Virus record (IMG/VR): IMGVR_UViG_3300025267_000011 | Span: 1 to 56,659 of that record | Length of the DNA: 56,659 nucleotides | Source of the DNA: a virus | Taxonomy: Duplodnaviria > Caudoviricetes | Strand: one strand, 5' to 3' | In this document: positions 9,486 to 45,458 of the stretch, in pieces | How positions within the stretch are numbered: the first letter of the stretch is position 1 | How the letters are laid out: each line of letters starts with the position of its first letter | Position numbers and translations under genes: made by a program | The notes under the pieces: model-generated | What the model was told of the DNA's origin: nothing | The model's database searches: none | What the model saw: only the letters and a program-made list of their open reading frames with translations

Positions 9486-9491
9486 CCAGCA

Positions 9492-24800: not shown

Positions 24801-25802
24801 GGTCTCGCGCCGGCGTGCCGCGGCGATGGACTCCGCGGCGTCCTCGGCGGCCCGGACCTGGTCGGCGAGCGCGTCCTGCACGGCGCGGTGAGCCCGCGCC
24901 TCGGCCCGCTTCGCCTCGACGATCCGCTCCGCGGCCGCCTCGATCGCCTCGGCCCCGTCCCGCGCGGTGCGCGCGGCCTGCCGCTGCGCGTCGACGACCC
25001 GACGCTGGGCGTCGGCGATCGCCCTCGCGCTGTCGCGAGCCGCCCGGGCGGCCTGCTGCTGGGCGTCGACGACCCGGCGCTGGGCGTCGGCGATCGCGTC
25101 GGCCCCGTCCCGGGCGGTGCGCGCGGCCTGCCGCTGCGCGTTCGCGATCTGCTGCTGGGCGTCGCGGATCGCGCGGGCGCTCGCCGCCGCGGCGGCCGCG
25201 CCGGACGTCGACGCGGTCGCCGCGGCCTCCTGGTCCGCGGCGTACCCGCGTAGCGCCTCCCCGACGCCGAAGAACGACCCGCCGAGGACGGTGACGATCC
25301 CGGCCAGCCCGGACGCCACGGCCGGTATGCCGGCGAGCGCGGCCCCGGCGATCCCGGCGGCCGACCCGACGAGGGCCAACTTCCCGGCGAACGAGGTCGC
25401 CGCCGACGCCGCGGCCTGGAACCGGGCGACGAGCTGCTGCCCGTAGGAGGTGACCTGGAGGAACGCCCCGCCGGCCTGTGCCGACGCCGACACGATCCGC
25501 GTCGCCGACCCGCTCCACACCGCGGTGGCGAGCCCCCATGCCGCCTGGACGCCGGTCGAGGCGTTGCGAGCGGCGGTGACGGTGCCCTGGATGCCACCGT
25601 TCATGCGGATCGCCGCGGCGGTCCACGCTGCCGCAGTCCGCGCGGCGGACCGCTCCGCGCTGACGCTGGCCTGCTCGGTCGCGGTCTCGATCTGCTGGCC
25701 TGCGGCCTGGGTGACCGCGGCCGACTGCCGCATCTGCGCGTCATAGTCGGCGTTGTCGCCGACCAGGCGACCCCGGACTGTGAAGTCGTCACCAACGGAC
25801 AC
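21834..25802 (-). CDS. Tape measure protein
   Basis: 1322 aa Ala-rich helical protein; AIADAQRRVVDAQ repeats, W-periodic region, PFSPAKTGPFSG motif. Confidence 0.9.
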   Translation of the reverse strand: MSVGDDFTVRGRLVGDNADYDAQMRQSAAVTQAAGQQIETATEQASVSAERSAARTAAAWTAAAIRMNGGIQGTVTAARNASTGVQAAWGLATAVWSGSATRIVSASAQAGGAFLQVTSYGQQLVARFQAAASAATSFAGKLALVGSAAGIAGAALAGIPAVASGLAGIVTVLGGSFFGVGEALRGYAADQEAAATASTSGAAAAAASARAIRDAQQQIANAQRQAARTARDGADAIADAQRRVVDAQQQAARAARDSARAIADAQRRVVDAQRQAARTARDGAEAIEAAAERIVEAKRAEARAHRAVQDALADQVRAAEDAAESIAAARRRETRALRDVTEAEERLDTTRQNALRTMQELQDRVAALAVDQFGAAVAVAEAERAYYRELRSSESTHVSRMRALHELNVARAREAELERDTTRAVDDARDAQERGIEGSEEVTDARERLAEAQEQATEATRDLQRAQKDAADSEADAARRVSDAREALAEAGRDVADSERELADARRDAAEANEDAARSVADAVDAVTRAQEQAAESAQDHARSVADAVAAVADAQQQAAESNDDAARAVADAMQGLADAQASAAEQAAGAAAQSSKYEEALKKLTPAGRAFVEQLIAMGEPLRELRDEAQEAFLPGLTQMLRDSEELFPIFRKNIGLVGREMGIIARRFGDMFRDPAFQEQLDRMQRNAVPIVQALGDGSLRLAESWVNVGANQDIARGTADLLRGVLEGLAGMLDYADRHGDSFGRVLSALGEILEIVLPAVMDLAGAAAEWLAPALEWLVSILREHEDDISGWILEMGKLYLIFKAFMLVSRFGLILSFAGAIARLIPGLGRLATRLRTAGRLMRNLGGAGAGLAGLALADNFLPKATPEEEASNNGLGYAGLKNITGAANQLMTDPATAFDDIRAEFEELSATWERGETPLQQYWQAFQNWIGRIPGDVSGWWTQLRADVGAWGTQFNADVNAKLAEVWHGFTNWLGGIPGAVGGWFAQAGVNAGQKLAELRDGTGQWGAEIVAGFVEWFTTLPERTSRWWSETVEGARRRAAELVRGAPQWAQDAVNGFVEWFTGLPGRVGEHFAGLYRTAQQRMGELRTGSGQWASQTIQNLVSWFATLPSRAGQWFAGMVAGAAERGRQLIQWARDLPGSIIRAILNTNLWQSGVSLVSGFWNGIVSRWNQMVDWVRRGMAQLRALWPFSPAKTGPFSGRGYVTYSGIALMGDFEESLRKGTPGVIASARAAMQAARAQLGGDIQARISAPGSAGFAPSTLASVLGGVARAIVNEVHNHFEVGGTVVAERDLLELVRKATARYAGRNVNAGLSGG

Positions 25803-30200: not shown

Positions 30201-31571
30201 TCAGGCCTGCAGCGACACCGCGTTCCCGGTCATGGCGCCGATGAACTTCGGCCCGCGGAGCGCGAGCGTGCAGTCCGACATGACGCCGTAGGGCTGGCTG
30301 TCCGGGGTGGTGACGGTCGCGGCCAGGTCCAGCGGGACCAGCTCGCGCACGTAGGGACGGAGCAGGTTCTCCGGGTCACGCGACACCAGGAAGATCGGCT
30401 CCGTGCCCAGCGCGGACGGCTTCTTCGAGGCGTTCGTCCCGGCGTAGGCCACCGGGTCCTGCACCGGCGCGGTCCCGCCGTTGCGCGGCAGCAGCGCCGT
30501 GCCGGTGTCGATGATCGACGTCGTCAGGATCGGGGTGATGCCGTCCGAGGCGAGCCGGACGACGGCGTCGACGATCCCGAGCAGGGTCGCCGTGCCGGCG
30601 CCACCGGTGGAGCGGTACACCTTGAACAGCAGCGGCGTGCCCTCGTCCACGCCCACCACGTTGGGCAGCGCGAGCGTGACCGTGGACGTCGCGCCCGTGG
30701 TGGCCTGGGTGACCTCGGCGGAGGCGACCGACTCCCCGGAGCGGGCGATGATCGCCGACACCTGGTAGCGGTAGGTCGCCGCCGGGAGGGTGCCGCCCGT
30801 GGTCGCCGTCGAGGTCGTGACCGCACCGACGTTGTTGCCGCGGTTCGCCAGGAACGAGGACTTCACCAGCGGCACGTCGCGGTAGCTCATCACGTTGACG
30901 CCGCCGGCGATCTCGACCCGGTCGAACCGCTGCTTGTCCGAGAGCAGCTGCGCGATCCGCGACTGCGCGGTCGGGGACATGACGAGCATCCAGGAGGCAT
31001 CCTGGACCGGCTCCGAGACGTTGGTCTCGACCATGTCGAGCAGCATGTCCAGCGACCCGAGCGACAGCGTCGCACCCGCGCGGTCGATCGCGTTCTGGTT
31101 GCTGCCGCTGTAGGTCGACAGCAGGTTGTCGAACCCGTCGAACTGCGGGTAGGGGCCGAACTCGGTCGACGCGGCGTTGCCCCAGAGGACCTGGGTCTCC
31201 AGGTCCCAGTAGAGGCCGCGGATCGCGCCCTCGATCTCCCGACCGCGCAGCGAACCGACCTGCGCGGCGGTGACCTCCTCGGCGTAGCCGGTGACGTCAC
31301 CGATGGTCTGCAGGTGCTTCATCTGGAAGAAGCGCTGCACGTAGGTGCTCTGCGACAGGGGCCGAGCGCCGCCGTCGCGGACGTTGCCGCCGGCCGGGAC
31401 GCGGTCGCGCCGGTTGAAGTAGAAGACGTCGCTGCTGTGCTTGCGCGAGGTGATCGAGCGGACCAGCAGGGAGAACCGGCGCTGGTACTCCAGGATCATC
31501 GGGTCGATGATCTTCTGAACGAGCGGTGCGGCGCCGACGGCGTCGAGGGCCTCGCGGGTGTGCGTGGTCAT
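30201..31571 (-). CDS. Major capsid protein (HK97 fold, SU10/DUF5309-like) with Ig/FN3-like insertion
   Basis: Follows scaffold; DLETQVLWGN, QFDGF, LVMSP, Y..VPLV, ELVPLDLA. Confidence 0.85.
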   Translation of the reverse strand: MTTHTREALDAVGAAPLVQKIIDPMILEYQRRFSLLVRSITSRKHSSDVFYFNRRDRVPAGGNVRDGGARPLSQSTYVQRFFQMKHLQTIGDVTGYAEEVTAAQVGSLRGREIEGAIRGLYWDLETQVLWGNAASTEFGPYPQFDGFDNLLSTYSGSNQNAIDRAGATLSLGSLDMLLDMVETNVSEPVQDASWMLVMSPTAQSRIAQLLSDKQRFDRVEIAGGVNVMSYRDVPLVKSSFLANRGNNVGAVTTSTATTGGTLPAATYRYQVSAIIARSGESVASAEVTQATTGATSTVTLALPNVVGVDEGTPLLFKVYRSTGGAGTATLLGIVDAVVRLASDGITPILTTSIIDTGTALLPRNGGTAPVQDPVAYAGTNASKKPSALGTEPIFLVSRDPENLLRPYVRELVPLDLAATVTTPDSQPYGVMSDCTLALRGPKFIGAMTGNAVSLQA

Positions 31572-31603
31572 CAGGGGGTCGTCCTTCCGGGACGGTGTGC
31601 ACG

Positions 31604-31742
31604 ACAAAGGCCCTGCCCGGTGGGGGTGCGGGCAGGGCCTTCGGGTGGTGAGCGGGTGACCATCGCTGCCGTGCGGCACCAGCCCCGACGGGGCTGGCGG
31701 TCTCGGAACGAACCGGCCCGCGACGTCGCGCGCGGGCCGGGA
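31604..31742 (-). promoter_or_regulatory. Structured leader with terminator-like hairpin upstream of the capsid gene
   Basis: Hairpin 31713-31740; three-way junction 31658-31702; 13-bp stem 31607-31641 followed by UUUG. Confidence 0.5.
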
Positions 31743-31760: not shown

Positions 31761-33536
31761 TCAGGCGGGGAGGTTGCGGTACGCCGACCGGCTGCCCATG
31801 ATCGCCTGCTCCGTCGCGGGCGCGAGGAACTTCTCGCGCTCCTCGGCGGTGTAGGTGTGGAGGGGCTTGTCCGGCCACCCGGCGGGGAGGCCGTGGGTGC
31901 CGGTCGCGGCGGCGGACTCGGTCGCGGCGGGGGCACCGACGGGCTGACCCGGGTAGCCCTTGCGCTTCACGCCGTTGGTCTCCGCGTCGGCCTGCAGCGC
32001 GGCGGTGACGAGGCGCTGCACCCGCTGCTCCTCGGTCTCCTCGGCCGCGGTCGTCGCGACCGCGGCGGGGGCGCCGGCGGCGGCCAGGCGCTCGGCCACG
32101 ATCCGCTCGACGCGCTGCTCCTCGGTCTCCACCGAGGCGGCGGCGGCCTTGGCCGCGGCGATCTTCTCCGCGACCAGGGACTCGATCCGGGCCTCCTCGG
32201 CGGCCTTGGCCTGCGCGGCGGCGACGCGCTCGGCGACGATCCGCTCGATGCGCTGCTCGTCGGTCTCCTGCGTGGCGGGGGTCGCCGGGGTGGTGCTGGT
32301 GGTGTCGGCCACGGCCGTCTCCTCCTTGGTGGTGGCGGCCGCCGGATCGGCGGCCGCGCCGGTCGACGTGCCGGCCTCGGCGGGCTCGTCGTCGGGGTCC
32401 TCGTCGTCGGGGTCGTCGACGAGGAACGGGGGCTTGCCGCCCTCCATCGGCGCGGGCTCGGCCGCGTCGGGGTCGGCGGTGATCAGCGCGAGCGCGTCGG
32501 CCGCGGCGATGGAGGCGACGCGGCAGATGCGGTCCAGGTCGTGCGGGTCGATGCAGTACGACGACACCGACACCGACAGGGACCCGATGTTCAGCGACAC
32601 GTGGAACCCGCCGTGGTGGTCACGCTCGGCGGGCCACATCTCCACCAGGGACTCGGTGAGCGGCCCGGCCGCGCGGAGGTGGCCCTCGGCGGTCACGGTC
32701 ACCCCGTGCCGCTCCAGCGCCTTGCGGGTGCGGCCCTTGAACCGCTTCACCTGGGCGGCCGTGTACTGCCGGGCCGTCTCGGTGGTGTGGATCGCGGACC
32801 ACGCGGCGAGCGCGTCGGCGCGGGTGGACAGCGGGTACAGCCGCGCGCCTCCTTCGAGGTAGCCGTTGTCCGCGTAGATCGTCGCGGCATCGGCGGCCTC
32901 CGTGGCGGGTGCCCCCTCGGGTGCCCCCTCGGGTGCCCCCTCGGGGGCCGGGGTCGGAGCGGTCTCGGTCGTCTTCTGCACGCGGGCCTCCGCGGACTCG
33001 TAGATCGGGACCCGACCGTCGGCGGACTCTCGCGGGGCCTTCCCGGCGGCGGTGCGGGTGATGGCGTTCACCCGCGCGCCGGTGACGCCGGGGGTCTTGG
33101 TGAAGTCGAGCCCGTCGAGCTCCAGGTCGTCGTCGACGGCGGTGTCGCACACGACGCCGTCGATCTCGACCTTGCGGACCCCGCCGCGGAAGTAGCCGCG
33201 GATGCTCACGCCCTCCAACCAGGCGTGCCCGGACTCGTCGGGGTCGACCAGCTCCAGCAGGTCACGCGCCGGGCCGGTGTTGGGCAGCACGGCGGTGAAC
33301 CGTGCGGCGCCCTCCTCGTCGAGCCACATCGAGGTGAGCCGCCCGGCGATCAGCGCGCTGTCGTCCTCGGCGCCGTGGTGGGTCAGCATCGTGAGCGGCG
33401 GGCCGCCCTCGGCGATGCGCCGCTGCGCTCGGGCGACGGCGCGAGCGACCATCTCCGGGCTGTAGTAGCGCGCGTTCTTGGACACGCCGGGGCGGAGCGC
33501 GACCCCGTCGTCGATCGTGGCGATGGGCTGGCCCAC
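31761..33536 (-). CDS. Capsid maturation protease-DUF6582-like-scaffold fusion
   Basis: GVSKNARYYS, MLTHH, GVSIRG, LDFTKTPGV; YADNGY..RLYPL..AAWSAI; ETEEQRVERIVAE repeats. Confidence 0.8.
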   Translation of the reverse strand: MGQPIATIDDGVALRPGVSKNARYYSPEMVARAVARAQRRIAEGGPPLTMLTHHGAEDDSALIAGRLTSMWLDEEGAARFTAVLPNTGPARDLLELVDPDESGHAWLEGVSIRGYFRGGVRKVEIDGVVCDTAVDDDLELDGLDFTKTPGVTGARVNAITRTAAGKAPRESADGRVPIYESAEARVQKTTETAPTPAPEGAPEGAPEGAPATEAADAATIYADNGYLEGGARLYPLSTRADALAAWSAIHTTETARQYTAAQVKRFKGRTRKALERHGVTVTAEGHLRAAGPLTESLVEMWPAERDHHGGFHVSLNIGSLSVSVSSYCIDPHDLDRICRVASIAAADALALITADPDAAEPAPMEGGKPPFLVDDPDDEDPDDEPAEAGTSTGAAADPAAATTKEETAVADTTSTTPATPATQETDEQRIERIVAERVAAAQAKAAEEARIESLVAEKIAAAKAAAASVETEEQRVERIVAERLAAAGAPAAVATTAAEETEEQRVQRLVTAALQADAETNGVKRKGYPGQPVGAPAATESAAATGTHGLPAGWPDKPLHTYTAEEREKFLAPATEQAIMGSRSAYRNLPA

Positions 33537-34005: not shown

Positions 34006-35901
34006 TCACACCCCCTTGCCGGGCTTGCCCTTGTCGTTCGGGGTGCGCCCGTACCGCAGCCGGTACCACGCCGCGGCGATCCGCTTCGCCCGCTCGGGCG
34101 GGACGTGCCGCTTGATCAGCCGGTAGAGCTGGGTCCAAGTGGTCCACCGCTTCGCCCCCTTCCCGGTCACCCAGTAGTCGCGGAGCTGGTCCCCGGCCTC
34201 GCCGAGCACGTCGCCGTCGTCGCCGGCCTCACCGACCTGCGACCACAGCGCGCCGTGGTCGGCCTCCTCGGGCCACTCGATCACCGGGATGAGCGCGCAC
34301 CGACAGTTCGGGTGCTGCGGCGGGAACGCCGCCCCGGACTCGAACGGCTCCCCGATCTCGACCGGGCCCTGGTCGCTGTTCGCCTCGCATCGCGGGCACA
34401 CCCGGACCTGGTCGGTGGGGTCGGCGCCGGCGACCAGCCACTCGTGCCGCTCCACCCCGGACGCGAGGTACCGGTCGACCGTGGCCGCGCTGACCGCCCG
34501 GGCGGTCTCGGTGATCGCGGTACGGCGCGCCCACACCCGGTCCGCCTGGAACGCCCGCAGCCGCGCGGCGAGGGTCTCGACGCTGTCCCCGTCGGCGAGG
34601 GCCTGCGCGAGGACCCGCGCGAACTCGGCCATGCGCTCGTCGGTGATCCCGGTCAGGGCGACGTCGGAGTCGGCGAGCATCGCGCGCAGCCCGTCACCGA
34701 GGCCGGTGTCACCGAGGACCTTCTCCGCGGCCTCGTGGTCCCCGACGTCCCACGACCCGTAGGTGATCTCTGCGTTCCACCACGGGTCGCCGTCGTCGTC
34801 ATCGGCCGGGGCCGCCCCGCCGTCGGTGGGGGGCTGGACCGGGGGCGCGCCGCCGGCGGACCGCAGCGCATCGCGGGCGGCGATCACCCCGATGAGGAAC
34901 GCCTCCACGAGCAGCCGCACCAGCACGGCCACGATCACGGCCTGCACCTCGACGGGCAGCATCGAGACGAACCGCACCGCGAGCCTGGTCTGCGCCGCGC
35001 TGGGCAGCTTCAACGCGACCGGCGCGGCGGGGGAGGGCACCAGCTCGGCCACCCCGGCACCGGCCAGGGACTCGGCCTCCCCGGTCAGCCAGTCCCGCGC
35101 GACCTGCTCGGCGTCGAACGCCTGATCCATCGCGCCGAGGAGCTGGTCGGCGTAGTGGGCGGAGGTCGGCGCGTCGCGCTCCCAACCGGTCCACTCGACG
35201 GCCCCGCCCGCGACGGCCTCATGCGTGGACTCGGCGGCCTCGGTGAGCGGGACCTCGGTCCAGTCGCCGGCGAGCACGACGGCGAGCCGGTCGAACCGGA
35301 GGTCGGCCTCGGCGACCAGGTCGGCCGGGTCGATCCCCCGCCCGGCGGTGATGTGGGCGACGTAGGGCTCCAGCTGGTCGGGGACCCCGTCGCGGTCGGC
35401 GAGGTCGTCCCACACGGCAGCCGCGACCGCGCCGAGGCCGGGGGCGTCCCCGACCAGGTACACGGTGTGCGGCTTGGTGGTCTCGTTGAAGACCGTCCGG
35501 CCCAGCACCCGGCCCGTGATCGGGGCCCGCGCGGCGAGCCCGCGCACGAGCGTGACCACGTCGTCGCGCTGCACGCTGTCCCATCCGGTGACGTCGTCGC
35601 CGAGGTAGGCCAGGGTGCAGTGCAGCTCGTCGGCGTCCAGGCCACCGTCCACGGCGAGCGCGGCCGCGGTGTCGGCGTCCGGGAGGAGCGCGATCATCCC
35701 GCCGGTGTGGCCGCCGGCGCGTTCGGCGACCGACTCCTCCGGGTCGTCCTCGTCGCCGTCCTCGTCGTCACCGCCGCCGAACAGCGCGGCGTGGATGCCG
35801 GCGAGATCACCGGCATCCATCCCCGAGTCGGCCACGGTGAACCCCGCGTCGTCGGGCCGGTTGAGGAAGGTGCTGCCCTCGCGGGCGTCCTGGGACCTCA
35901 C
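34006..35901 (-). CDS. MuF (gp7-like) minor head protein fused to an N-terminal 2H phosphoesterase
   Basis: HCT and HIT motifs; TETARA, HEWL, CPRCEAN, PPQHPNCRC; GTGA coupling to portal. Confidence 0.85.
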   Translation of the reverse strand: MRSQDAREGSTFLNRPDDAGFTVADSGMDAGDLAGIHAALFGGGDDEDGDEDDPEESVAERAGGHTGGMIALLPDADTAAALAVDGGLDADELHCTLAYLGDDVTGWDSVQRDDVVTLVRGLAARAPITGRVLGRTVFNETTKPHTVYLVGDAPGLGAVAAAVWDDLADRDGVPDQLEPYVAHITAGRGIDPADLVAEADLRFDRLAVVLAGDWTEVPLTEAAESTHEAVAGGAVEWTGWERDAPTSAHYADQLLGAMDQAFDAEQVARDWLTGEAESLAGAGVAELVPSPAAPVALKLPSAAQTRLAVRFVSMLPVEVQAVIVAVLVRLLVEAFLIGVIAARDALRSAGGAPPVQPPTDGGAAPADDDDGDPWWNAEITYGSWDVGDHEAAEKVLGDTGLGDGLRAMLADSDVALTGITDERMAEFARVLAQALADGDSVETLAARLRAFQADRVWARRTAITETARAVSAATVDRYLASGVERHEWLVAGADPTDQVRVCPRCEANSDQGPVEIGEPFESGAAFPPQHPNCRCALIPVIEWPEEADHGALWSQVGEAGDDGDVLGEAGDQLRDYWVTGKGAKRWTTWTQLYRLIKRHVPPERAKRIAAAWYRLRYGRTPNDKGKPGKGV

Positions 35902-38327
35902 GCGGCCACCTCCCCACCTGCCGGGCGTGGCGCCGACCGCGTCGACGCCGCGCTGCTCGGGACCACCACCGCGGACACGATCCACGATCCAGCCCGGTGC
36001 TTCTTCACGTCGGTGACGAGGAGCTTCTGCCCCCGCGGGAGGATGATCTCGCCCTCGTTCGGGTAGTGCGACACCCGCCGCGCGTAGATCGACGGGGTCC
36101 CCTTCGGCACGGCGATATCCATGAACACCTCGGTCGCCGCGAGGTCCTCGTCGTCGCCGAACCGGGACTCCCCGAGCGTGGTGGACATGTAGCCGCGATC
36201 GGACAGCACCTTGCCCGCGAGCGACCCCGGCGAGCGCGCCACCCCGGGGGGGAACCCGTCGAGGTTGAGCGTGCGGACCACCCGCAGATCGTGCGAGGCA
36301 GGCGTCATCAGAGCGTCGATGTTGCGCACGTCCTCACCGATGATCTCGTTGTCCACGACACCCTTGCGGAGCTGCTCGTTGATCGTCGAGTAGCCGTTCG
36401 CCGTGTAGTGGTACAGGCTCTCGATCTGCTCCTCGGTCCCCTTGGGCTTGGGCTGCTTGTCCAGCCAGGCGTTGGTCTGCTCGAAGTTGTCCAGCTTCAC
36501 GGGCGCGAACTTCTTCGCCGCCGCGGTGACCCGCTCGCGCTCGACGTCGGTGACCGGCTGCGCCTTGACCGGCGCCGACTGCAGCCGACGGACCCGCTTC
36601 CACTCGGCGTTGCGGGCCTTCCTCGCCGCACGGCGGGCTCGGCGCTGGTCCTTCCGGTCCGCGCGGGCTTGCCGGCGTCGAGCGCGGGCGGCCTGCCGGT
36701 CGGCCTTGGTGATGGTCGACCCGATCGGCTTGCCGTACTTCTTCGCCCCGGCCGCGGTGCGGACCTTCGCCTCGAGGACGGACTCCGACAGCTCGTCGTC
36801 GTCGAGGTCGTCGCGCTCCTCGTCGGCGAGGTCGTCCTCGTCCCAGCCGAGGCCGTCGTCGTCGGGGTCCTCGTCGAGGTCGGTCTCGTCGTCCCATCCG
36901 TCGACGTCGCCGTCCGGGGCGGGGTCCTCCTCGGGCGCCCGCACCAGCATGATCGGCTCGTCCGGATCGGCCCGGTCGGCGACCTCCCAGCCGGACCCGG
37001 CGACCTGCTTCGCCAGGCTCGCCAGGGTGGCCGAGTCGATATCGCGCACCCGCATGACCGAGCCCTGGGCGACCAGCACGAGGGCCTGGTCCCCGCCCTC
37101 CACGGGGGGCTTCCCGATCTCGGCGCGCCACTCGTTGAGCGTGTAGGCGCCGTTCTTGAACCGCAGCTCCCGAATCTCCTCGATCTTCTTCGAGTCGCGG
37201 GTGTCCACCTCGGTGAACTGCAGCTTCCACCCGGACACGCCGAACCCGCGCACGGCGAGCCGGTAGAAGAACGCTTCCAGCACCAGCGCGGAGATCGGGT
37301 CACAGGTCTGCACGTCGAAGGTCTTGTCTTGGCCCTCGTCGGTTCCCCCGCCGAGGTTCCCGGACTCGATGACGCCGGCCTTGGCCGGGGGCACCCCGTA
37401 GGTCGCGAGGATCTCGTCGCGGGCCTTGTCCAGCTCGGAGTGCGCGGACTCGATCCGTCGCGCCCCGAGCTCGTGGACCTGCCCGCCGCCCTTGGTGATG
37501 ACCGGGTAGCCGGCGCTGCCCGGCCCGACGTTGCGGGCCATGTGCTGGGCGACCCAGCGGCGCACGTCGGCCCCGCTCATCTCCGCGGGCAGGTCGACGT
37601 GCAGGGTCAGCGGGTCGCCCTTGCGGTAGGTCTGCATGAGCGTCGCCGCGGCGAACAACCACCGCTGGATCGGCACGAGCGCGGCCTGCGTCGGGGAGAT
37701 ACCGAGCACCCCGGACCGGGGGGAGTCGAGCGAGATGTGGATGACCTCGTGCGGCTCGAACTCCGCGCGCTGCCCGTACTCGGTGAGCTGCACGTACCCG
37801 GTGATCTGGCCGTGGGCGTCAGCGGTCGGGGTGATCGACGGGCAGTCGAGGGAGAACAGCCCGACGGGGACCTGGCCCCGCCACACGACCTCCACGAACG
37901 CATCGCCGAACACCAGCAGATCGGTGATCACACCGCGGAGCAGCTGGCGGATGTTCTCCCGGTCGTTGACGAACCGGAACAGCCGCTCGCACGCCACGAC
38001 CTCGGCGGGCTTCTTCGGGCGCTCCGCGTCGGGGTCGGTCTCCTCGGCGGGGTCCCACACGAACTCCAGCCCGCCGGCGGTGATCCGGCGGGCGATCGCG
38101 TTCGTCGACGCCCACGACCACGGGCACGCGAGATAGGCGTCGTACAGCTCGGCCATGAGGGTGCGGCGGTCGCGGTCGGCGGCCTGCACGCTCGGGCTGA
38201 ACTCGTTGAGCCCGGAGTCGGGGACGGCGTACTCGTAGCCGCGTCGGGTCACCGTGGTGCCCGTGGTGGCCGCGGAGGGTGCGGCCTCCACGACGAACGC
38301 GCTCGCCAGCCAGTCGATCAGCCCCAC
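35898..38327 (-). CDS. Portal protein fused to a C-terminal ADP-ribosyltransferase
   Basis: Portal motifs DLLVFGDAF, EVIHI, GISP, EILATYGVPP, TLNEWRAEIGKPP; ART motifs YTANGYSTINEQLR, VVR, DRGYMSTT, EGEIILPRG. Confidence 0.88.
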   Translation of the reverse strand: MGLIDWLASAFVVEAAPSAATTGTTVTRRGYEYAVPDSGLNEFSPSVQAADRDRRTLMAELYDAYLACPWSWASTNAIARRITAGGLEFVWDPAEETDPDAERPKKPAEVVACERLFRFVNDRENIRQLLRGVITDLLVFGDAFVEVVWRGQVPVGLFSLDCPSITPTADAHGQITGYVQLTEYGQRAEFEPHEVIHISLDSPRSGVLGISPTQAALVPIQRWLFAAATLMQTYRKGDPLTLHVDLPAEMSGADVRRWVAQHMARNVGPGSAGYPVITKGGGQVHELGARRIESAHSELDKARDEILATYGVPPAKAGVIESGNLGGGTDEGQDKTFDVQTCDPISALVLEAFFYRLAVRGFGVSGWKLQFTEVDTRDSKKIEEIRELRFKNGAYTLNEWRAEIGKPPVEGGDQALVLVAQGSVMRVRDIDSATLASLAKQVAGSGWEVADRADPDEPIMLVRAPEEDPAPDGDVDGWDDETDLDEDPDDDGLGWDEDDLADEERDDLDDDELSESVLEAKVRTAAGAKKYGKPIGSTITKADRQAARARRRQARADRKDQRRARRAARKARNAEWKRVRRLQSAPVKAQPVTDVERERVTAAAKKFAPVKLDNFEQTNAWLDKQPKPKGTEEQIESLYHYTANGYSTINEQLRKGVVDNEIIGEDVRNIDALMTPASHDLRVVRTLNLDGFPPGVARSPGSLAGKVLSDRGYMSTTLGESRFGDDEDLAATEVFMDIAVPKGTPSIYARRVSHYPNEGEIILPRGQKLLVTDVKKHRAGSWIVSAVVVPSSAASTRSAPRPAGGEVAA

Positions 38328-39801
38328 GGGGAGTCCTCCTCGTCGTCGTGCAGCCAGGAGGGAGCGGCGTCGGGGCCGGGCCCGTTCTTGATCGCGAACG
38401 GGCCGAACGGCTTGGCGCTGCGCTGGTCCTCGTCGGGGGTGGGGCCGAGGTCGGTCGGGAACTGCGCCCCGCCGCCGAAGGACATGAGCAGGTAGCGGAC
38501 CGTGTCGTAGGGGTGGTCCTCGGCGTCGGTGTCGACGTCCTCGGGCCGCTTGGGGTCCCGGGGGAGGTCGGCCATCGTCCGGACGAACTCGGGGCAGGTG
38601 TCGTCGAGGACGTGGAGCATCGGGCAGGTGTCCCAGCCCTGATCGCGGTGGTAGATGCACGCCGGGGCCTCGGCCAGGTAGGTGTGCATCCGGGCCTTGC
38701 CTGAGAGCCGGTCGTTCTCGGCTCGCTGCAGCGGCAGACCCTCCATGATCATCTGCTTGGCGGGGGGCAGCGCCGATCCGACCTTGCCCCACATCGCCGG
38801 GTCCCCGGCGATCATCCGCACCCCGGTGCCCAGCGCGAGGATCCTGCGGGCCTGCTCCCGCTCCGGGGTCTCCGTCATGGACAGCTCGCGGTAGAGCCAC
38901 ACCCGGCCGTCGCCGTCACGGGCGCCCGCGATGAACACCGACGGCGCCGACCACCCGTAGTCCATGCCGCCGCGGCGGTCCCAGCTCTCGGGCAGGGTGA
39001 ACGCCGGCACGACGGCCCGGGCGGGACGCCAGTCGGGGAACGCCTGGTTCGCGAACACGTCCCAATCCCCGTCCATGATCATGCGACGGAGCTCGGGGTC
39101 CGGGTTACCGGCCAGCCGTTCCGCGTAGTCGCCGACGTACGGGTTGTCCGACACCTTCGCCGGGATGAACAGCCGCCGACGCCCGGAGGCGTCGACCAGC
39201 TCGGCCCGGCCCTTCTCGGTGGCCGTGACGTAGTCGGCCTTCACCCGGCCGTGCCCGACCCCGCCCGGGTTCGACGCCGACCGGATGCCCAGGCACGGCA
39301 CGCCCCGCACGCCGGAGCGGACGCGGGTGTAGAGGAAGTCCACGACGGCCGGCGGGATCGTGGTGCGCTCGTCGAGGATCAGGAGGTTGATCTCGGCCGA
39401 CTGGAGCGCGGACGCCTCCTGCAGGTTCTTCGCGTGCGCGAAGGTCAGGACCGCCCCACCGGGGAAGGTCAGTTCGTACTTCGACCCGTTCCACTTCGCG
39501 CCCAGCTTGCGGAAGTAGCCATACCGGGCCAGCGCGCGGAGCACGGACTGGTTGAGCTCGGGGAAGCTGCGGCGGAACCAGAACACCTGGATGCCCGGGT
39601 ACCGGGTGCAGGTGCGCGCGGCGAGCGCCAGCAGCGCAGCGCTTTTCCCCCGCCACCGGCCCCGCCGTAGAGCACGTCCATGTCCTCGTCGGGCAGGGCG
39701 AGGAACCGGGCCTGCGGGCCCGGGTTCGGCACGAACCCGATCTTGGCGAAGGCGTCGACGGGGCGCGGGGCGGCGGCGTCGGCCAGGAGCCCCGCGAACG
39801 T
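38318..39801 (-). CDS. Terminase large subunit, split by a -1 frameshift at 39643-39649
   Basis: PNPGPQ..FL and YGGAGGGGK in one frame; SAALL, LLILDE, SNPGGVGH, DYG, DHPYD in the -1 frame. Confidence 0.85.
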
Positions 39802-39808
39802 GGGGCGC

Positions 39809-40420
39809 CTACCCCTCGTCCTCTGCGGCTTCCTCGGCCTCGCGGAGTGCGTCGGCGAAATGGGACAGCACCTCCCGCTGCATCGTGTCCGGGACGCCGG
39901 CGCGGTCCATCGCGGTGACCAGACCGCGGTGTGTGAGGGCGACCTGCTCCTCCAGCAGCTCGACCATGCGCGCGTCGTTGACGTCGGTGGCGTCGAGCCC
40001 TTCGAGCTTGGACCGGCGCTCACCGAGGCGGAGCCGCGCGTTGACCGCGGCGACGTCGGGCTCGCGCCACATCACCCCCCGACAGCCCTCCTCGGGGCAG
40101 CGCACGGCGCGTGCCGGGCGGGTCGACGGGGTGATCGCCACTTCCATGTCGTCGAGTCGGGCGATCTCCAGCGCGCGCAGCTCTTCGACCCGGCCGCGGG
40201 TGTCGCGCGCCAGTTGCATGAGGTGGCCGTTCACCGCGTCGAACGCGCGCTTGCGCCCGTCCTTGCCCGGGTAGAGCTGCCGCTTGTCGGTCGCGGAGAT
40301 CGGCTGCGTCGCGATCTGCTCGTACGACATGCCGGCCTTGCGCAGCTCGACAGCACGGAGGGCGCGCTCAGCCGCGGTGACGCGCCGCGGCGAGGTCTTG
40401 CTCTCGCCGCGGCCGCTCAC
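39809..40420 (-). CDS. Terminase small subunit
   Basis: N-terminal HTH AVELRKAGMSYEQIA; ELRALEIARLD, ERRSKLEGLDA; precedes TerL. Confidence 0.8.
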   Translation of the reverse strand: MSGRGESKTSPRRVTAAERALRAVELRKAGMSYEQIATQPISATDKRQLYPGKDGRKRAFDAVNGHLMQLARDTRGRVEELRALEIARLDDMEVAITPSTRPARAVRCPEEGCRGVMWREPDVAAVNARLRLGERRSKLEGLDATDVNDARMVELLEEQVALTHRGLVTAMDRAGVPDTMQREVLSHFADALREAEEAAEDEG

Positions 40421-41055
40421 CAGACCGGCCCGCCCTTGAACCCGGCGACCGAGCGCGTGTGCTCGGCGAGCACGGCGTCCCGGTCGACGGCGATCGCGCC
40501 GCGGCCCGCGCACCGCCCGCTGACCCGGTCGGGGGACCAGGCCCCCGCCCATGCGTGGGTGGTGGTGACCGTGGCGGGCTGCCCGACCCCGCGCAGCGCC
40601 ATGCAGCCGTGCGCGGCGGTGATGATGCACGCGGCGCCGTCCGGGTCCAGCCGCTCGGCGACGGCGTCGGCGACCTGCCGGCCCAGCTGCTCCTGCACCT
40701 GCAGACGCCGCGCGTAGCCCTCGACGACCCGGGCGAACTTCGACAGGCCCACGACCTCGGCCCCGGGACGGGGCCGGTAGGCGACGGTCGCGGTGCCGAC
40801 GACGGGGAGGAGGTGGTGCGCGCACGTGGACACCACGCGGATGCCCGAGACCATGACGAGCCCGGCGTCGGCCGGGGCCGGGAACGTCCGGCCGAGGTGG
40901 TCGGCCGGGTCCTCCTGGTAGCCGGCGAGCTGCTCGGCCCAGGCCCGGGCGACCCGGCCCGGGGTGTCGGCGGTGTGGGCGCCCTCTTCGACCCCGAGGG
41001 CCAGCAGGAGCGCCGAGACGGCCGCGGCGGCCTTGTCGACGTCGAGCACGGTCAC
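40417..41055 (-). CDS. folE: GTP cyclohydrolase I
   Basis: TPGRVARAW, STCAHHLLP, GLSKFAR, RLQVQE, HGCMALRGV. Confidence 0.95.
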   Translation of the reverse strand: MTVLDVDKAAAAVSALLLALGVEEGAHTADTPGRVARAWAEQLAGYQEDPADHLGRTFPAPADAGLVMVSGIRVVSTCAHHLLPVVGTATVAYRPRPGAEVVGLSKFARVVEGYARRLQVQEQLGRQVADAVAERLDPDGAACIITAAHGCMALRGVGQPATVTTTHAWAGAWSPDRVSGRCAGRGAIAVDRDAVLAEHTRSVAGFKGGPVW

Positions 41056-41777
41056 CGCCCCCTCTCGTCGCCCCAGGCGGCCACGTGGAGCCGGTGGGAC
41101 AGGTTGACGCCGTGCTCGACCGCGGCGTCGGCGAGCTCGGCGAAGCGCTCGGCGACGACGGCCGGGGTGGTGCCCTCGGGCATCACCCACACCCACCGGC
41201 GGGGGACGTGCAGCTCCTCGGCGAGGGCGACCGCAGCGGGTACGTCGGCCGGACCGGAGCACACGACCTTCACCACGACGTGCGCCAGCCCGGCGAGCCG
41301 GACCACGCCCCACGCGCACGACACCGCGGGGTCCTGGTGGCCGCGGTGCTCCCCGGCGTTGGGCAGCTTCGGGGACACCACGAACAGCTGCACGAGGTTG
41401 AGCATCGGGTCGCGCGGGGCGACGGTGCCGTTGGTCTCGACGTGCACCCGCAGCCCGGCCGCGCGGAGCCCGACGAGGAACGCCTCCATCGCCGGGCCCT
41501 GCTGCAGCAGCGGCTCGCCGCCGGTGAGGACGACGAGGTCGGCCCGGTCACCGGCGCGGTCCACGACCTCGGCGACCAGGCCGTCGACGTCGCGGGTCCC
41601 GATCTCCTCGGCCAGGGTGAAGCGCGAGGCGTCCCAGGTGTAGGCCGAATCGCACCACGAGCACGACAGGTTGCACCCGCCGAGACGGACGAACACCGCG
41701 GGCATCCCGGCGGCCGGGCCCTCGCCCTGCAGCGTCGGCCCGAACACCTCCGACACGCGGAGCTGGTGGGTCGTCAC
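41052..41777 (-). CDS. queE: 7-carboxy-7-deazaguanine synthase (radical SAM)
   Basis: TLQGEG, CNLSCSWCD, TGGEPLLQ, ETNGT, VSPK, RLHV..WG. Confidence 0.95.
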   Translation of the reverse strand: MTTHQLRVSEVFGPTLQGEGPAAGMPAVFVRLGGCNLSCSWCDSAYTWDASRFTLAEEIGTRDVDGLVAEVVDRAGDRADLVVLTGGEPLLQQGPAMEAFLVGLRAAGLRVHVETNGTVAPRDPMLNLVQLFVVSPKLPNAGEHRGHQDPAVSCAWGVVRLAGLAHVVVKVVCSGPADVPAAVALAEELHVPRRWVWVMPEGTTPAVVAERFAELADAAVEHGVNLSHRLHVAAWGDERGR

Positions 41778-42208
41778 GGCGTGCCCTCCCATCGGTAGGT
41801 GGCGGCGTTGACGTGGGTCTCCTGCACGACCACCGACCCGCCGGTCGTCTCCGCGCCGAACACCTCGAGGGCCCACCGGCCGACCCAGGCGGCGATGTTC
41901 TCCGTCGACGGGTCGCCCGGGCACACCCGCAGCCCGGGCAGGCGACCCGGCCCGAACGCCAGGTCGGCGAGCGGGTCGGAGGCGTTGAGCAGGAGCCGGT
42001 GGTCGAACTCGGTGTCGAGGTAGCCGCGGAACGCCCGCTTCACCCCGCCGAAGTCGAGCCCGGCCAGCAGGCCCCGGTCGTCGACGACGCCGGTCAGCTC
42101 CAGCTCCACCCACATGCTGTGCCCGTGGATGGCCTCGCACTTCCCCGGCAGCAGCGACAGCCGGTGAGCGACCTCGATGTTGTGCCGGACCAGCAGGGAC
42201 GCGCTCAC
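41774..42208 (-). CDS. queD: 6-carboxytetrahydropterin synthase
   Basis: AHRL, C..IHGHS, DFG, FDH..LN, PSTENIA, ET. Confidence 0.93.
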   Translation of the reverse strand: MSASLLVRHNIEVAHRLSLLPGKCEAIHGHSMWVELELTGVVDDRGLLAGLDFGGVKRAFRGYLDTEFDHRLLLNASDPLADLAFGPGRLPGLRVCPGDPSTENIAAWVGRWALEVFGAETTGGSVVVQETHVNAATYRWEGTP

Positions 42209-42879
42209 ACCACGCCCGTCGGGGTCGCGTAGGCGGTGGCGTCGTCGACGCCGGCGTCGGTGAAGGCTTCGATCCGCTCGACGCACGTTCCGCACCGGCC
42301 GCAGTGCACGTCCCCGCCCTCGTAGCAGGACCAGGTGCGCTCCACCGGCAGGCCGAGCTTCCCGGCCTCGCGGGCGATCTCGGTCTTGTCGATGTGCACG
42401 AACGGCGCGTCGAGGCGCACCGCCTCGCCGGTCCCGAGGGCGACGGCGATATCCAGCGCGGTGATGAACTCGGGCCGACAGTCCGGATAGACGGGGTGGT
42501 CCCCGGCGTGCACCGCGGTGACGACGTGCGTGCAGCCCTTCGACACCGCGACCCCGGCCGCCGCGCACAGCAGCGTGGCGTTCCTGTTCGGCACGATCGT
42601 GGCCTTCATCGCCGGCGCCGCGTAGTGGCCGTGGGGGACGGGCACGTTCGGGTCGGTCAGGGCCGACCCGGTGAGGAGCTGGCCCCACCCGGTCATGTCC
42701 AGGACGCCGTGCTCGACGCCGTAGAACGCGGCGATCTCCGCGGCCGCGGCCAGCTCGCGGCGGTGCCGCTGCCCGTAGTCGACCGACAGCGCGAACACCG
42801 CGATGCCGCGGGCGTGGGAGCGGGCGAGCGCGGTGGAGGAGTCCAGGCCGCCGGAGAGGAGGACGAGGTCACGACGCAT
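42205..42879 (-). CDS. queC: 7-cyano-7-deazaguanine synthase
   Basis: SGGLDS, DYGQRH, VPNRN, YPDCRPEF, TWSCY, CGRCGTC. Confidence 0.96.
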   Translation of the reverse strand: MRRDLVLLSGGLDSSTALARSHARGIAVFALSVDYGQRHRRELAAAAEIAAFYGVEHGVLDMTGWGQLLTGSALTDPNVPVPHGHYAAPAMKATIVPNRNATLLCAAAGVAVSKGCTHVVTAVHAGDHPVYPDCRPEFITALDIAVALGTGEAVRLDAPFVHIDKTEIAREAGKLGLPVERTWSCYEGGDVHCGRCGTCVERIEAFTDAGVDDATAYATPTGVV

Positions 42880-43816
42880 GGGGCTGTGCCTTCCGTGGGT
42901 AGCAGGTGTGGGCGCCGCGGTAGCGACGCCAGATCGGGGGGACCGGCCCGCCGGGGGAGTGGAGGATCCGGTCGAGGTCGGCGATCGCGTAGGCATCGGG
43001 CTCGCCGGCGCCGAGGGAGGAGTAGAGGTGCGTGCCGGGCAGCCCGTCGGGACCGCTGCCTGGTTCGGTCACCGGCCGGGTTCGGCGCAGGTGTTCGTCG
43101 GCCGTCGCGTAGGCGAGCGACATGGCCTGCATGAGCGCCTGCCGCCCGCGGAGCTTGGGCATCCGGTTGTCGGTGGCGATCTGCGCCAGGTCGATGCCGT
43201 GGTCGCGGATGATCCGGTGATCGCGGCGGAGACGGGCGACGTCGCTCACGCCGGTGTTCTGCACGGTCCGGCCGTCGAAGTAAACGATCTTGCCGAACTT
43301 GAACGCGCCGCTGACCGTGGAAGCGTCCGCGCTGTAGGGCAGCGCAGCCCGGAGCGAGGTCATCGACCCGACCCCGAGGGCGTGGACCCCGCCGCCGAGG
43401 TCGGCCGCGCGCCGCTGCAGCGCCCGGACCCGCCGCACCTGCAGCGCCCGGGCCATCCCGACCAGGCCGCCGGCGGCGACGTAGGAGCTGTCCCGCACCA
43501 TCGCCTCGAACTCGGCGACGGTGTCGCCGGGGGTGAACACGGGCATGACCGGGAGTCCGCGCGCGTGCAGCGCGCGGGTGTTGCGCCGGGTGCCGGCCGG
43601 GTCCCCGATGACGTCGAGGGTGATCGCGTGGTCCCAGCAGCCGCGCCACCGCTCCAGGAACGCGGCGTAGTCGGCGAGCTCGATCCGGCGCCCCTTGGTG
43701 TGGGCGGTGAACGCCCCGCTGTCGATGAGGAGCCGACCGCACACCAGGGAGGTCCGGACCCGGCGTAGGTCGGTGTCGGCGTGGAAGGCGTAGGACAGCA
43801 GCAGGTTGACCGCCAT
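42869..43816 (-). CDS. TGT/DpdA-like deazaguanine transglycosylase, paralog B
   Basis: LIDSGAFT, LDVIGD, PVF, HALG, YSADAS. Confidence 0.8.
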   Translation of the reverse strand: MAVNLLLSYAFHADTDLRRVRTSLVCGRLLIDSGAFTAHTKGRRIELADYAAFLERWRGCWDHAITLDVIGDPAGTRRNTRALHARGLPVMPVFTPGDTVAEFEAMVRDSSYVAAGGLVGMARALQVRRVRALQRRAADLGGGVHALGVGSMTSLRAALPYSADASTVSGAFKFGKIVYFDGRTVQNTGVSDVARLRRDHRIIRDHGIDLAQIATDNRMPKLRGRQALMQAMSLAYATADEHLRRTRPVTEPGSGPDGLPGTHLYSSLGAGEPDAYAIADLDRILHSPGGPVPPIWRRYRGAHTCYPRKAQPHAS

Positions 43817-44748
43817 CAGCTCACCCGCCGATCCGGGGTGATCGCCGCTGCTTCCCGGGACACCCGGATCAGCACGTCGAGGTCGTTCTTCCCGCCCGCG
43901 GCGAGGTAGAGCTTCAACCCGTCCCCGGTGACCGCGCTCCCGGTCGGCGGGGGCACGGCCGGGCGACGGCGCTGCAGCCACGTCTCGTAGCGGCGCATCG
44001 AGACGATCGAGGCCCGCACCATCCAGTCGCGGTCCTGCCGGGCGACGGGCCCGACCTCGCGCACGATCCCGAACCCGGGCGTCACCGCGCGGCGCGGGTT
44101 CCCACCGTAGGAGCGGATCAGCCGGGCGTGCGGTGCGGCCTTCGGGGTGCCGCACCGGAAGTTCACCAGGCGTCGGCCGTCGAACAGCGAGATCGTCCCG
44201 GTGCGTGACGCGGAGGTCCAGTAGGAGGAGTCCACGCTGTACCAGGGCGCGGACTCCGCGTACGGGGGCCGGGTCAGCCCGAGCCCGTGGAGCCGGGTCC
44301 CGTGCTCCCGGGCGATCTGGTGGGCCCGCACGATCCACCGCAGCATCGCCGTCGCGCGTTCCTTCTTCGCGACGGCGACCGCGCCCCCGAGCATCACGTA
44401 CGGGTGCGCGGCGCACAGCTGCTCCAGCACCCGCCAGGGGCTCGACACGTGGAACACCGGCAGGATCGGCACCGCCCCGTCGACAGCGGACATGAGGCGC
44501 TCGGTGTTGCGCGCCGTCCCGACGGGGTCGCCGATCACGTCGAGCGTCGCCGCGGCGTTGATCACGGTGCGGTGCTCGCGCAGCCATGCCGCGTAGTCGG
44601 CGACGGTGACCTCGGCCCCGGAGTTGTGCGCGGAGAACGCCCCCGAGTCGGCGAGGAAGTCCACGTCCCGGTGCGGGCTGAGGTCCGCGGTCAGGTTCCG
44701 CCGCCGGAAGAAGTGGAACGACCCGAGGATGTGGACGCGGCCGGTCAC
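43816..44748 (-). CDS. TGT/DpdA-like deazaguanine transglycosylase, paralog A
   Basis: LADSGAFS, LDVIGD, PVFH, LGG, HGLG, WYSVDSSYW. Confidence 0.85.
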   Translation of the reverse strand: MTGRVHILGSFHFFRRRNLTADLSPHRDVDFLADSGAFSAHNSGAEVTVADYAAWLREHRTVINAAATLDVIGDPVGTARNTERLMSAVDGAVPILPVFHVSSPWRVLEQLCAAHPYVMLGGAVAVAKKERATAMLRWIVRAHQIAREHGTRLHGLGLTRPPYAESAPWYSVDSSYWTSASRTGTISLFDGRRLVNFRCGTPKAAPHARLIRSYGGNPRRAVTPGFGIVREVGPVARQDRDWMVRASIVSMRRYETWLQRRRPAVPPPTGSAVTGDGLKLYLAAGGKNDLDVLIRVSREAAAITPDRRVS

Positions 44749-45458
44749 GGCTCGTCGTCGCTGGCCGGCAGGTCGGCCGGGTCGACCCCGAGCAGCGCGG
44801 CGAACGCGGCGACCTCGTCCCCGGTGTGGGTGTCGAGGTGGGCCTTCCACGACTCGTGCAGGATCGGGGGCAGCAGCAGCCGCAGCGCGGGCCACAGGTC
44901 CTTGTCGCCCCCGCCGTTGCCGAGCTGGTCGGCGAGGTCGTCGAGGTCGTCGGGCTCGTCGTCGTCGGCGCCGTGGTCGATGTAGAGCGCGGACATGGCC
45001 TCGTAGTCGCCGAGGGTGTACCCGGTGAGCTCCAGCAGGTGCGCGTCGGCGAGGTCGGCCAGGACGTCGGTCATCAGGACCTCGTCGACGCCACCGGCCG
45101 CCGAGAGCTGGTTCGACCCGACGAGGTACGCCTCGGCGTCGAGGTCCGAGCGGGACGCCCACCCGGCGGTGACGGGCATCAGCCACATGCCGTCCGCGGG
45201 GTCGACGTCGATCCCGTCGGGCGGGGACTCCCCGGCCTCGTGCATCGCGCGCAGCTGCTCGTAGCGGCCGTGGCCGGCGACGAGACGCCCGGTGCGTTCG
45301 TCGCGGAGCGGGAGCTCGGCGAAGCCGTGGTGGCTGATCGCGCGGGCGATGCCCTCGTCGTCGTGGAGCTTCGGGTTCCGAGGCGCCAGCAGGACCTTGT
45401 CCAGCCGGACGTACTCGGTGCGACGCCTACCGGGCGTCGGGTGCGTGGTCGGCTCCAC
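44745..45458 (-). CDS. ParB/Srx-like N-terminal domain protein
   Basis: APRNPKLHD, HGF, LVAGHGR, AYLVGSNQL, TGY. Confidence 0.8.
   Translation of the reverse strand: MEPTTHPTPGRRRTEYVRLDKVLLAPRNPKLHDDEGIARAISHHGFAELPLRDERTGRLVAGHGRYEQLRAMHEAGESPPDGIDVDPADGMWLMPVTAGWASRSDLDAEAYLVGSNQLSAAGGVDEVLMTDVLADLADAHLLELTGYTLGDYEAMSALYIDHGADDDEPDDLDDLADQLGNGGGDKDLWPALRLLLPPILHESWKAHLDTHTGDEVAAFAALLGVDPADLPASDDEP

Follow-up and report, generated by a model that had tools for sequence, protein, structure and literature searches.

The virus record IMGVR_UViG_3300025267_000011 is a metagenomic fragment of linear class (CheckV completeness 63%), and its full 56,659 bp form the window analysed here. On the minus strand, at 35898..38327, lies an open reading frame (ORF) of 809 aa, P0001, in which translation, Pfam and PHROGs together show a phage portal protein joined to an ADP-ribosyltransferase (ART). 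Reading from the N-terminus, and with all coordinates on the minus strand, the chain consists of a portal core (residues 1–471; 36915..38327), an acidic linker (residues 446–521; 36765..36992), a leader motif, VRTAAGAKKYGKPIGSTITK (residues 522–541; 36705..36764), an Arg-rich helix (residues 542–585; 36573..36704), and the ART domain (residues 595–791; 35955..36545). The initial annotation had read the same succession—portal, very acidic linker, motif, Arg-rich helix, and a VIP2/Alt-like ART with R, STT, and ExE (EGE) catalytic motifs—in one uninterrupted ORF, and had raised the possibility of a missed stop; the parts and the single frame both stand, and contigs of three metagenome runs, as opposed to raw reads, carry the ORF unchanged.

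The frame is open over 35898..38900 (-), and from the GTG at 38327 it encodes 809 residues with a single terminal stop. That start overlaps the TGA of the large terminase gene (38318–38320; overlap sequence GTGGGGCTGA), and the TGA of the fusion ORF itself (35898–35900) is overlapped by the GTG start of the next gene at 35901 (a GTGA overlap), with a GGAGG 7 nt upstream. Coding character persists throughout: GC content at third codon positions (GC3) is 0.97, 0.97, 0.91, and 0.95 for residues 1–445, 446–521, 522–585, and 586–809, and the remaining two forward frames hold 9 and 3 stops. Logan contigs from three metagenome runs each cover 35700–38400 (2701 bases) with 0 differences and 0 gaps, at word depths of 92, 40.5, and 80.1; since these runs may include the source of the record and contigs drop rare variants, this support is good but not final. 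A fourth run, from sediment, yielded short fragments only, at 90–99% identity, which are uninformative on habitat or variants, and no RNA dataset was listed as holding the stretch. Reading of the repeat-rich linker revealed no obvious slippery heptamer, with no further frameshift search made. Finally, a 775-aa protein on other contigs (P0003) is 47% identical to P0001 over 98% of its length and likewise runs from portal through acidic linker and motif to ART, indicating that the architecture has survived long divergence.

The portal assignment draws on Pfam Phage_portal (PF04860), which matches residues 115–403 at 76.4 bits against a cut-off of 39.1, and on the PHROGs portal family phrog_12 (8e-34). 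Among 8000 candidates scored, 479 portal relatives were recovered at E ≤ 1e-3, with portals of 500–545 aa sharing 53–64% identity with that of P0001. The HK97-type portal equivalog model TIGR01537 scored 51 bits, below its cut-off of 112.05, and we classify P0001 from its sequence as an HK97-type portal of the superfamily rather than as an equivalog of TIGR01537. Past the region of similarity, ordinary relatives have ~63 residues of Pro-rich tail and a conserved terminal helix, both missing from P0001, where the acidic linker and cargo stand in place of the usual ~60-residue tail. The linker contains 36 D/E in 76 residues, including two G-W-D-[DE]-E repeats, and its DNA carries a 51-nt tandem repeat of 2.2 copies (36807–36919). 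Beyond the leader motif, the Arg-rich segment has 19 K/R in 44 residues and forms one long helix in an AlphaFold2 (AF2) model of residues 500–809 (model residues 42–83, corresponding to 541–582).

The ART domain looks intact in both sequence and predicted fold. Pfam ADPrib_exo_Tox (PF03496) matches residues 625–776 at 77.1 bits (cut-off 23.4), PHROGs assigns the ART toxin family phrog_3895 (6e-17), and in a phmmer comparison with Protein Data Bank (PDB) sequences the last 211 residues align to C3stau2 and VIP2. In these alignments R685 (VVRT; codon 36273–36275) falls on the arginine of VIP2 ‘VYRW’, S715-T716-T717 (36177–36185) on VIP2 GYMSTSL, and E758-G-E760 (36048–36056) at the ExE position; 27 aligned relatives show no variation at R685 or E760 and little at S715 or T716 (S and T ≥ 90%). 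The AF2 model (pLDDT 87.2) was matched by Foldseek to C3bot1 (E 2.9e-13, TMt 0.75) and Plx2A (TMt 0.77), and also to VIP2, CDTa, iota-Ia, and Certhrax, so that sequence and model both point to the C3/VIP2-like R-S-E clade. Among viral folds in BFVD, the best match was an ART+MuF fusion of Microbacterium phage Percival (E 7.9e-17), with Alt-like proteins appearing at ranks 13, 25, and 49 by way of the common ART fold; the Alt-like family phrog_802 matches residues 532–671 only (5.9e-9), and Pfam found no MuF family in P0001. The C3 exoenzymes, VIP2, iota-Ia, and CDTa share with this domain the fold and the positions of the catalytic R, S-T-S/T, and [EQ]-x-E, but identity is only 20–24% and P0001 has no binary-toxin partner or secretion signal; its phage-head context makes bacterial targets likely. 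C3 enzymes carry QxE and act on Asn, whereas VIP2 and iota carry ExE and act on Arg, and by this rule the EGE sequence predicts that the domain is probably an arginine-specific mono-ADP-ribosyltransferase. We considered a DNA-targeting ART of the pierisin/Scabin type, which might be tied to the 7-deazaguanine genes described below, and set it aside on the admittedly weak argument that the PDB and fold matches shown are to protein-modifying enzymes (C3, VIP2, iota, CDT, and Plx2A), with no pierisin or Scabin among the matches listed.

Between portal and enzyme, sequence comparison shows conservation of the motif that follows the acidic linker, rather than of the linker itself. It was delimited by profile search and consensus, is modelled with high confidence (AF2 pLDDT 95–96), and occurs as a single copy in the window. 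A profile built from six copies found 44 proteins, the six included, and a pattern search counted 53 copies in these 44, with the consensus R-[YRK]-V-R-T-A-A-G-A-[KR]-[KR]-Y-G-x-P-I-G-[SA]-P-I; the string singled out in the initial annotation, KVRTAAGAKKYGKPIGSTI, recurs in P0002, P0003, P0004 (twice), P0006, and the stand-alone P0124. Upstream flanks are often acidic or W-x-W, and downstream flanks are basic or Gly-rich. Pfam families in the motif proteins cover a wide range of enzymes—ART (10 proteins), PI3/4-kinase-like (4), Zeta-toxin/AAA_33 (4, one with a DNA-ligase domain), Topoisomerase-I-like (1), and Nudix (1)—as well as PG_binding_1 (2), Portal PF04860 (7), Portal_Mu (1), MuF (2), and Peptidase_S78 or S78_2 (3). 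The motif mostly lies between a structural domain (portal, MuF, or S78) and a downstream enzyme, with exceptions in P0294 (motif N-terminal, S78_2 C-terminal) and P0305 (Nudix upstream of the motif). As many as four copies occur per chain (P0271), and in 13 proteins, sometimes stand-alone, a copy lies ≤25 residues from the N-terminus. Short conserved motifs are also known between conserved carriers and swappable C-terminal toxin modules, as in VENN of CdiA and DPxGL of Rhs; the motif here is alike as a border marker, but its sequence differs, and it also heads stand-alone proteins and recurs up to four times in a chain.

Cultured phages carry the motif as well, with weak E-values (0.01–1) yet the exact pattern: GMA2 (Orf10 and Orf13), GMA6, Brevibacterium phage Cantare, Microbacterium phage Magritte, and the record of Microcystis phage Mwe-JY05, together with the Forza-like gp80, a 1017-aa ART encoded between portal and capsid genes. 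Relative to the window's copy, those of the Gordonia phage GMA2 are identical at 16 of 18 residues, and 11–12 of those 16 codons differ. BLAST found no GMA2 head protein similar to the head proteins of the window, including portal, capsid, and protease, and in tblastn searches the window's head proteins matched the GMA2 locus only at the motif, a 2H domain, and the MuF tail. A peptide kept while its codons differ, without similarity between the head proteins, argues for selection on the peptide and against recent DNA transfer. Conservation so far above that of every head protein also hints at an invariant partner, such as DNA, a host factor, or a protease cleft, rather than a fast-evolving capsid surface. 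The motif belongs to no Pfam or NCBIfam family, and its profile hit only BrxL among PDB sequences, which at E 0.44 we take as chance. A conserved phage partner of the motif was sought among 24 head-module proteins of GMA2, Forza, Mwe-JY05, L003, and L005; no Pfam family was common to all, and DUF6582 was confined to the window's own clade.

Several observations on other leaders and leader-bearing loci stand beside these. A second short sequence, roughly E-H-P-R-x(3,4)-G-[KR]-F, precedes several stand-alone or MuF-linked ARTs that lack the VRTAAG motif (P0145, P0167, P0188, P0246, and P0130) and may be an alternative leader of the same kind. In GMA2 (L002, 8962–10795), the leader-bearing Orf13 (345 aa, no family) stands immediately before Orf14, a distinct ART of 243 aa (PF03496, 1.9e-13), so that leader protein and enzyme are unfused neighbours. 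Mwe-JY05 (PP395638.1, L007) has two exact copies, one in a 390-aa Arg/Ala-rich protein annotated as a capsid maturation protease (5767–6939) and one in the next, giant ORF (7300–12060); the composition of its proteins looks high-GC, which is odd for the named host. P0124, a 353-aa ART, and P0274 (644 aa, no family) share a near-identical leader and flank, and the longest contig recorded for each has the same length (11,796), suggesting that one phage carries cargo cassettes in tandem.

The fusion is rare among portals of this kind. Of the 119 portal relatives listed, 110 are ≤600 aa, and the median BLASTP alignment to P0001 stops at query residue 471. The 9 longer ones, which include the closest relatives, carry diverse additions: portal+ART in P0003; portal+2H+MuF+ART in P0005, which has no copy of the leader motif; portal+2H+PI3/4-kinase-like, after the leader motif, in P0004 and P0006; and in P0002, again after the motif, a domain that ESM Atlas links to ART-PolyVal (score 0.91, 25/30 matches), a lead only. 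P0025 and P0089 were judged by eye to contain a ParB/Srx-like domain, and P0065 and P0109 contain inteins (Hint on record for P0065, by eye for P0109), which interrupt the portal just after the conserved ‘RDEIL’ block. The ParB/sulfiredoxin-like domain (‘IVDGxHR/H’), also seen at L020:5800–6441, sits in the portal tail ahead of the conserved terminal helix, in chains that lack the leader motif, and is a second, different decoration of the inner end of the portal. A scan of prophages in one genome per species found 17 related loci in Streptomyces, Kitasatospora, Amycolatopsis, Saccharothrix, Peterkaempfera, and Streptosporangiaceae, with portal frames of 485–646 aa.

Starting instead from the enzyme, an exhaustive HMMER search returned 1469 ART relatives at E ≤ 1e-3, none closer than ~42% identity. 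In the best 150 of these, 4 ARTs are on a portal, namely P0001 and P0003 and, on another portal lineage, P0134 and P0171; 87 of the 150 (≤1000 aa) were scanned with Pfam and included 13 with MuF, 2 with VG15, and 2 with Phage_min_cap2, and 61 longer ones were checked by local phmmer only, for portal and 2H/MuF. On a quick tree built from 159 ART domains, portal carriage by 5 of them requires 5 changes against a shuffled mean of 4.9, indicating no clustering, and at least 3 of these changes are forced by branches with SH-aLRT ≥95. The portal-borne ARTs are thus polyphyletic, which argues for cassette swapping in which ART cassettes joined portals several times. Leader and ART also occur together as a stand-alone protein in P0124, whose leader is 86% identical to that of the window.

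The kind of fusion is not new. ARTs joined to the head proteins portal or MuF have been published as an observation from genomes (Iyer 2017, PMC5512222; 2022, PMC9503650), as have 2H and Nudix domains on these two carriers, and the 2017 paper on polyvalent proteins describes the same for 2H and PBECR domains (PMC5512222). In BFVD, moreover, the ART model matches a 1201-aa ‘Phage portal protein, HK97’ at rank 23. The initial annotation had contrasted the portal fusion with the familiar MuF and Alt ARTs; as the survey turned out, the fusion is real and rare, at 4 of the best 150 ART relatives, and P0001 is a rare further case of a known kind. The effectors described by Iyer et al. form the same class—effector domains on MuF or portal, inferred to be packaged in the head and injected—and those papers, in the parts drawn on here, deal in domain architectures and do not mention a leader motif or an actinomycete portal clade. 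Within the excerpts of the literature we used, we found no report of demonstrated cleavage or delivery of a portal-borne enzyme.

Two further systems offer comparison. In MuF polymorphic toxins, defined by Jamet 2017 (PMC5576092), and in the Microbacterium phages of Jacobs-Sera 2020, where portal-MuF, MuF-protease, and MuF-VIP2 fusions are described and the last are ‘predicted to be a component of the virion’ (PMC7302621), a VIP2/C3-like ART such as that of Percival gp4 rides on a head-internal structural protein encoded beside the portal, with variable cargo and predicted carriage in the virion. The carrier there is MuF, whereas in P0001 it is the portal, with MuF (and 2H) encoded by the next gene; SPP1 gp7 is present at 1–2 copies per capsid (PMC5576092), against 12 expected for a portal. 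The second system is phage T4, whose Alt is a head-packaged, injected ART (PMC9503650), as proposed for P0001, but a free protein rather than a portal fusion. T4 internal proteins bear a short conserved N-terminal leader before variable cargo, which targets them for packaging and which the prohead protease cuts off (PMC9026906, PMC9503650), and this capsid-targeting sequence (CTS) brings foreign proteins into heads, where they are processed and then delivered (PMC9026906). The leader of the window has no sequence relation to the T4 CTS, although the window's candidate protease is predicted to share the fold of T4 gp21. C-terminal fusions are tolerated on at least one portal, since engineered T4 gp20-GFP and gp20-Hoc gave active phage (reviewed in PMC9026906).

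The candidate protease occupies residues 1–165 of a 591-aa protein (31761..33536, (-)) that continues with DUF6582 and an acidic, coiled region. ESM Atlas placed 19/30 matches of residues 1–165 in Peptidase_S77 and 7/30 in S78. Foldseek matched a 4-sequence AF2 model of this region (pLDDT 70.8) to T4 gp21 (5jbl, E 8.8e-4), and VIA-align gave the same protein as its only hit with Z ≥ 8 (Z 10.4, rmsd 3.5, 131 aligned), followed by varicella-zoster virus (VZV) assemblin at 7.4 and others at ≤5.7. H53/H54 (THH) and S111 (GVSIRG), the candidate catalytic residues, are invariant in an alignment of four homologues. A search of viral contigs for relatives of the 591-aa protein returned 76 pattern matches, none of them related; homologues of the protease were instead found by tblastn in loci gathered by portal, and are present in 13/17 related prophage loci. 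From the model, then, 31761–33536 encodes a candidate prohead protease of gp21/assemblin fold, and the remainder of the protein, with DUF6582, an acidic stretch, and repeated helices, looks like a scaffold. Its gene lies two genes downstream of the fusion, between the MuF and capsid genes, making cleavage of the fusion feasible.

The surrounding minus strand is a siphophage head-and-tail module by PHROGs and Pfam, with head genes in the order large terminase, portal, MuF, protease/scaffold, and major capsid protein. The large terminase subunit gene (38318..39808, (-); phrog_2, 1.7e-27), of uncertain start codon (39586 or further upstream), directly precedes the portal gene, which is followed by a gene encoding an N-terminal 2H phosphoesterase, a MuF/SPP1-gp7 minor head protein, and a small conserved C-terminal tail (34006..35901, (-); Phage_Mu_F PF04233, 5.8e-12; 2_5_RNA_ligase2, 2.1e-5; TIGR01641; tail phrog_6439). 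The 2H domain of this protein is LigT/2'-5' RNA ligase-like, with HxT motifs; the same 2H and MuF parts are joined to the portal in the relatives P0005 and P0270, and a weak Acb1-like/2H match falls on the motif-bearing GMA2 Orf10. Further along are the major capsid protein (30201..31607, (-); phrog_752, 1.7e-31; SU10_MCP in Pfam, 8.4e-9), connector and tail genes, and a 1322-aa tape measure (21834–25802, (-)). With a GC content of 69–82%, the window is best explained as part of a temperate-type siphophage of a high-GC actinomycete host, a bacterium of soil type.

Elsewhere in the window are genes for FtsK/SpoIIIE-like, ParA-like, ParB-like, and tyrosine-recombinase proteins (470–2167, 8034–8969, 44745–45458, and 47644–48741), and no tRNA was found in it. 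A related head module (L016) is located on a 97.9-kb Kitasatospora plasmid, and the element of the window may be a plasmid-prophage. Directly upstream of the terminase region, a 7-deazaguanine pathway (40417–44748, (-)) comprises GTP cyclohydrolase I, QueE, QueD, QueC, and two tandem TGT/DpdA-like genes, which suggests modified phage DNA. A 1123-codon open frame at 9492–12863 (-), in a region where GC is 81.7% (profile 10001–12000), has a GC of 0.75 at second codon positions and matches no Pfam or PHROG family; it may encode a low-complexity protein or may be no gene at all.

Taken together, these features are compatible with a mechanism in which the portal gene captured a mobile cargo cassette made up of acidic linker, leader motif, basic helix, and ART, such that every portal subunit would be made with an ART on its C-terminal end. 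By known portal geometry that end would lie inside the head, giving ~12 copies per procapsid, and no separate packaging step would be needed. During head maturation the prohead protease would cut the extension free at or near the leader motif, a cut that the initial annotation had placed at the acidic linker, and the basic ART module, once released, would exit alongside the DNA and modify a host protein as infection begins, in the service of host takeover or counter-defence; the release and ejection steps are modelled on T4 Alt, the T4 CTS, and MuF cargo. We give this scheme as a whole, from portal-carried ART through protease release and ejection to host modification, an even chance of being right. 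Somewhat below even, though a serious possibility, is the more general proposal that the motif is a portable ‘head-cargo leader’ of actinomycete phages, a functional counterpart of the T4 capsid-targeting sequence that would mark proteins or polyprotein segments for head carriage, processing, and delivery to the host.

A number of points weigh against this scheme. A 20-residue leader, far better conserved than any head protein, exceeds what a protease site normally needs, and for the copies near the N-terminus in 13 proteins cutting would release nothing. The protease assignment rests on a moderate-confidence model from 4 sequences, and neither Pfam nor PHROGs assigns the 591-aa protein to a protease family, even with the threshold relaxed to E ≤ 5. 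On the side of the portal, the fusion has lost the terminal helix conserved in ordinary relatives, and packaging might be impeded by the twelve 37-kDa appendages that the portal crown would carry. Among the 17 prophage relatives, within 4.5 kb on each side of the portal frame, neither the ART (tblastn, E ≤ 1e-4) nor the motif (profile hidden Markov model, E ≤ 0.01) was found in any (0/17 for each), and a fusion this rare would also fit a short-lived accident. Lastly, the source is a metagenomic fragment judged 63% complete, and no viable phage is known.

Of the other explanations, the one that survives best, while still improbable beside the scheme of release and ejection, is that the ART stays on the portal, is never ejected, and has its effect in the producing cell, ahead of assembly or in the course of it, or within the head—for example, in late modification of host or phage proteins, or in blunting a defence that senses portal or terminase. 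Translation of the ORF as a single chain and the lack of an established cleavage site both suit such a role. Against this, a role specific to the portal makes no sense for the same leader+ART cassettes where they are carried on MuF or form genes of their own; the tether, which is long, acidic and basic, and probably flexible, fits release, as does the nearby protease; and an enzyme acting late needs no fusion to a structural protein.

Slightly less probable is a weapon in the style of polymorphic toxins, with particles from a lysogen delivering the ART to competitors without immunity, as proposed for MuF toxins. The layout, with variable C-terminal toxin modules behind a conserved junction on a conserved carrier, is that of polymorphic toxins; an enrichment of MuF toxins on temperate phages has been described (PMC5576092 and PMC3482391); and the tyrosine recombinase, ParA, and ParB-like genes suggest a temperate or plasmid-prophage lifestyle. 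Against this, PHROGs and Pfam searches of 52 + 11 ORFs of the window, which did not take in all small ORFs, revealed no immunity gene (ARH or macro), and the cassettes are also present in cultured Gordonia phages such as GMA2 and Forza. Given that the delivery route and the enzyme are the same in both, a weapon would differ from delivery to the phage's own host only in who benefits.

We consider it unlikely that the fusion is a recent neutral or mildly harmful event, in which a stop was lost between the portal gene and a downstream stand-alone leader+ART gene, perhaps in a prophage that no longer makes particles. Stand-alone proteins of the necessary kind exist (P0124), the fusion is rare among relatives, and the terminal helix of the portal is missing, all as such an event would predict; but P0003 keeps the fusion at 47% identity, several other portals of the clade carry other cargo, the catalytic residues are intact with GC3 of 0.91–0.97 throughout, and the neighbouring head genes are all intact. 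Weakest by far is an artefact of assembly or sequencing, a missed stop or frameshift joining two genes: the junction does lie in low-complexity GAC/GAG repeats that are error-prone for assemblers, and each of the three supporting runs may have contributed to the record, but three separate assemblies give the same 2701 bases at depths of 40–92, coding statistics are unbroken over the junction, and the independent homologue P0003 has the same reading-frame layout.

If the scheme of carriage, release, and ejection holds, the locus is a rare form of a known phage strategy, in which an enzyme is carried into the host inside the head, here on the inner end of the portal; were the fusion a tolerated accident, it would be an ordinary curiosity. 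Outside T4, P22, P1, N4, and the giant phages, head cargo and its loading rules are mostly guessed from domain fusions. With the portal itself as carrier, P0001 is a clean natural case in which location and stoichiometry (~12) would be fixed, so that release and delivery are directly testable by mass spectrometry. The leader motif is the most interesting part of the locus, and in literature searched with motif strings we found no description of it. If it is a signal for loading or processing, it would explain how unrelated enzymes—ARTs, kinase-like proteins, zeta-toxin-like kinases, Nudix, 2H, topoisomerase-like, and ligase domains—enter the heads of actinophages. It would then be usable as a tag to load foreign proteins into the capsids of phages of Gordonia, Streptomyces, Microbacterium, and related hosts that serve in genetic work, and would allow the ejected proteome of actinomycete phages to be read out from sequence.

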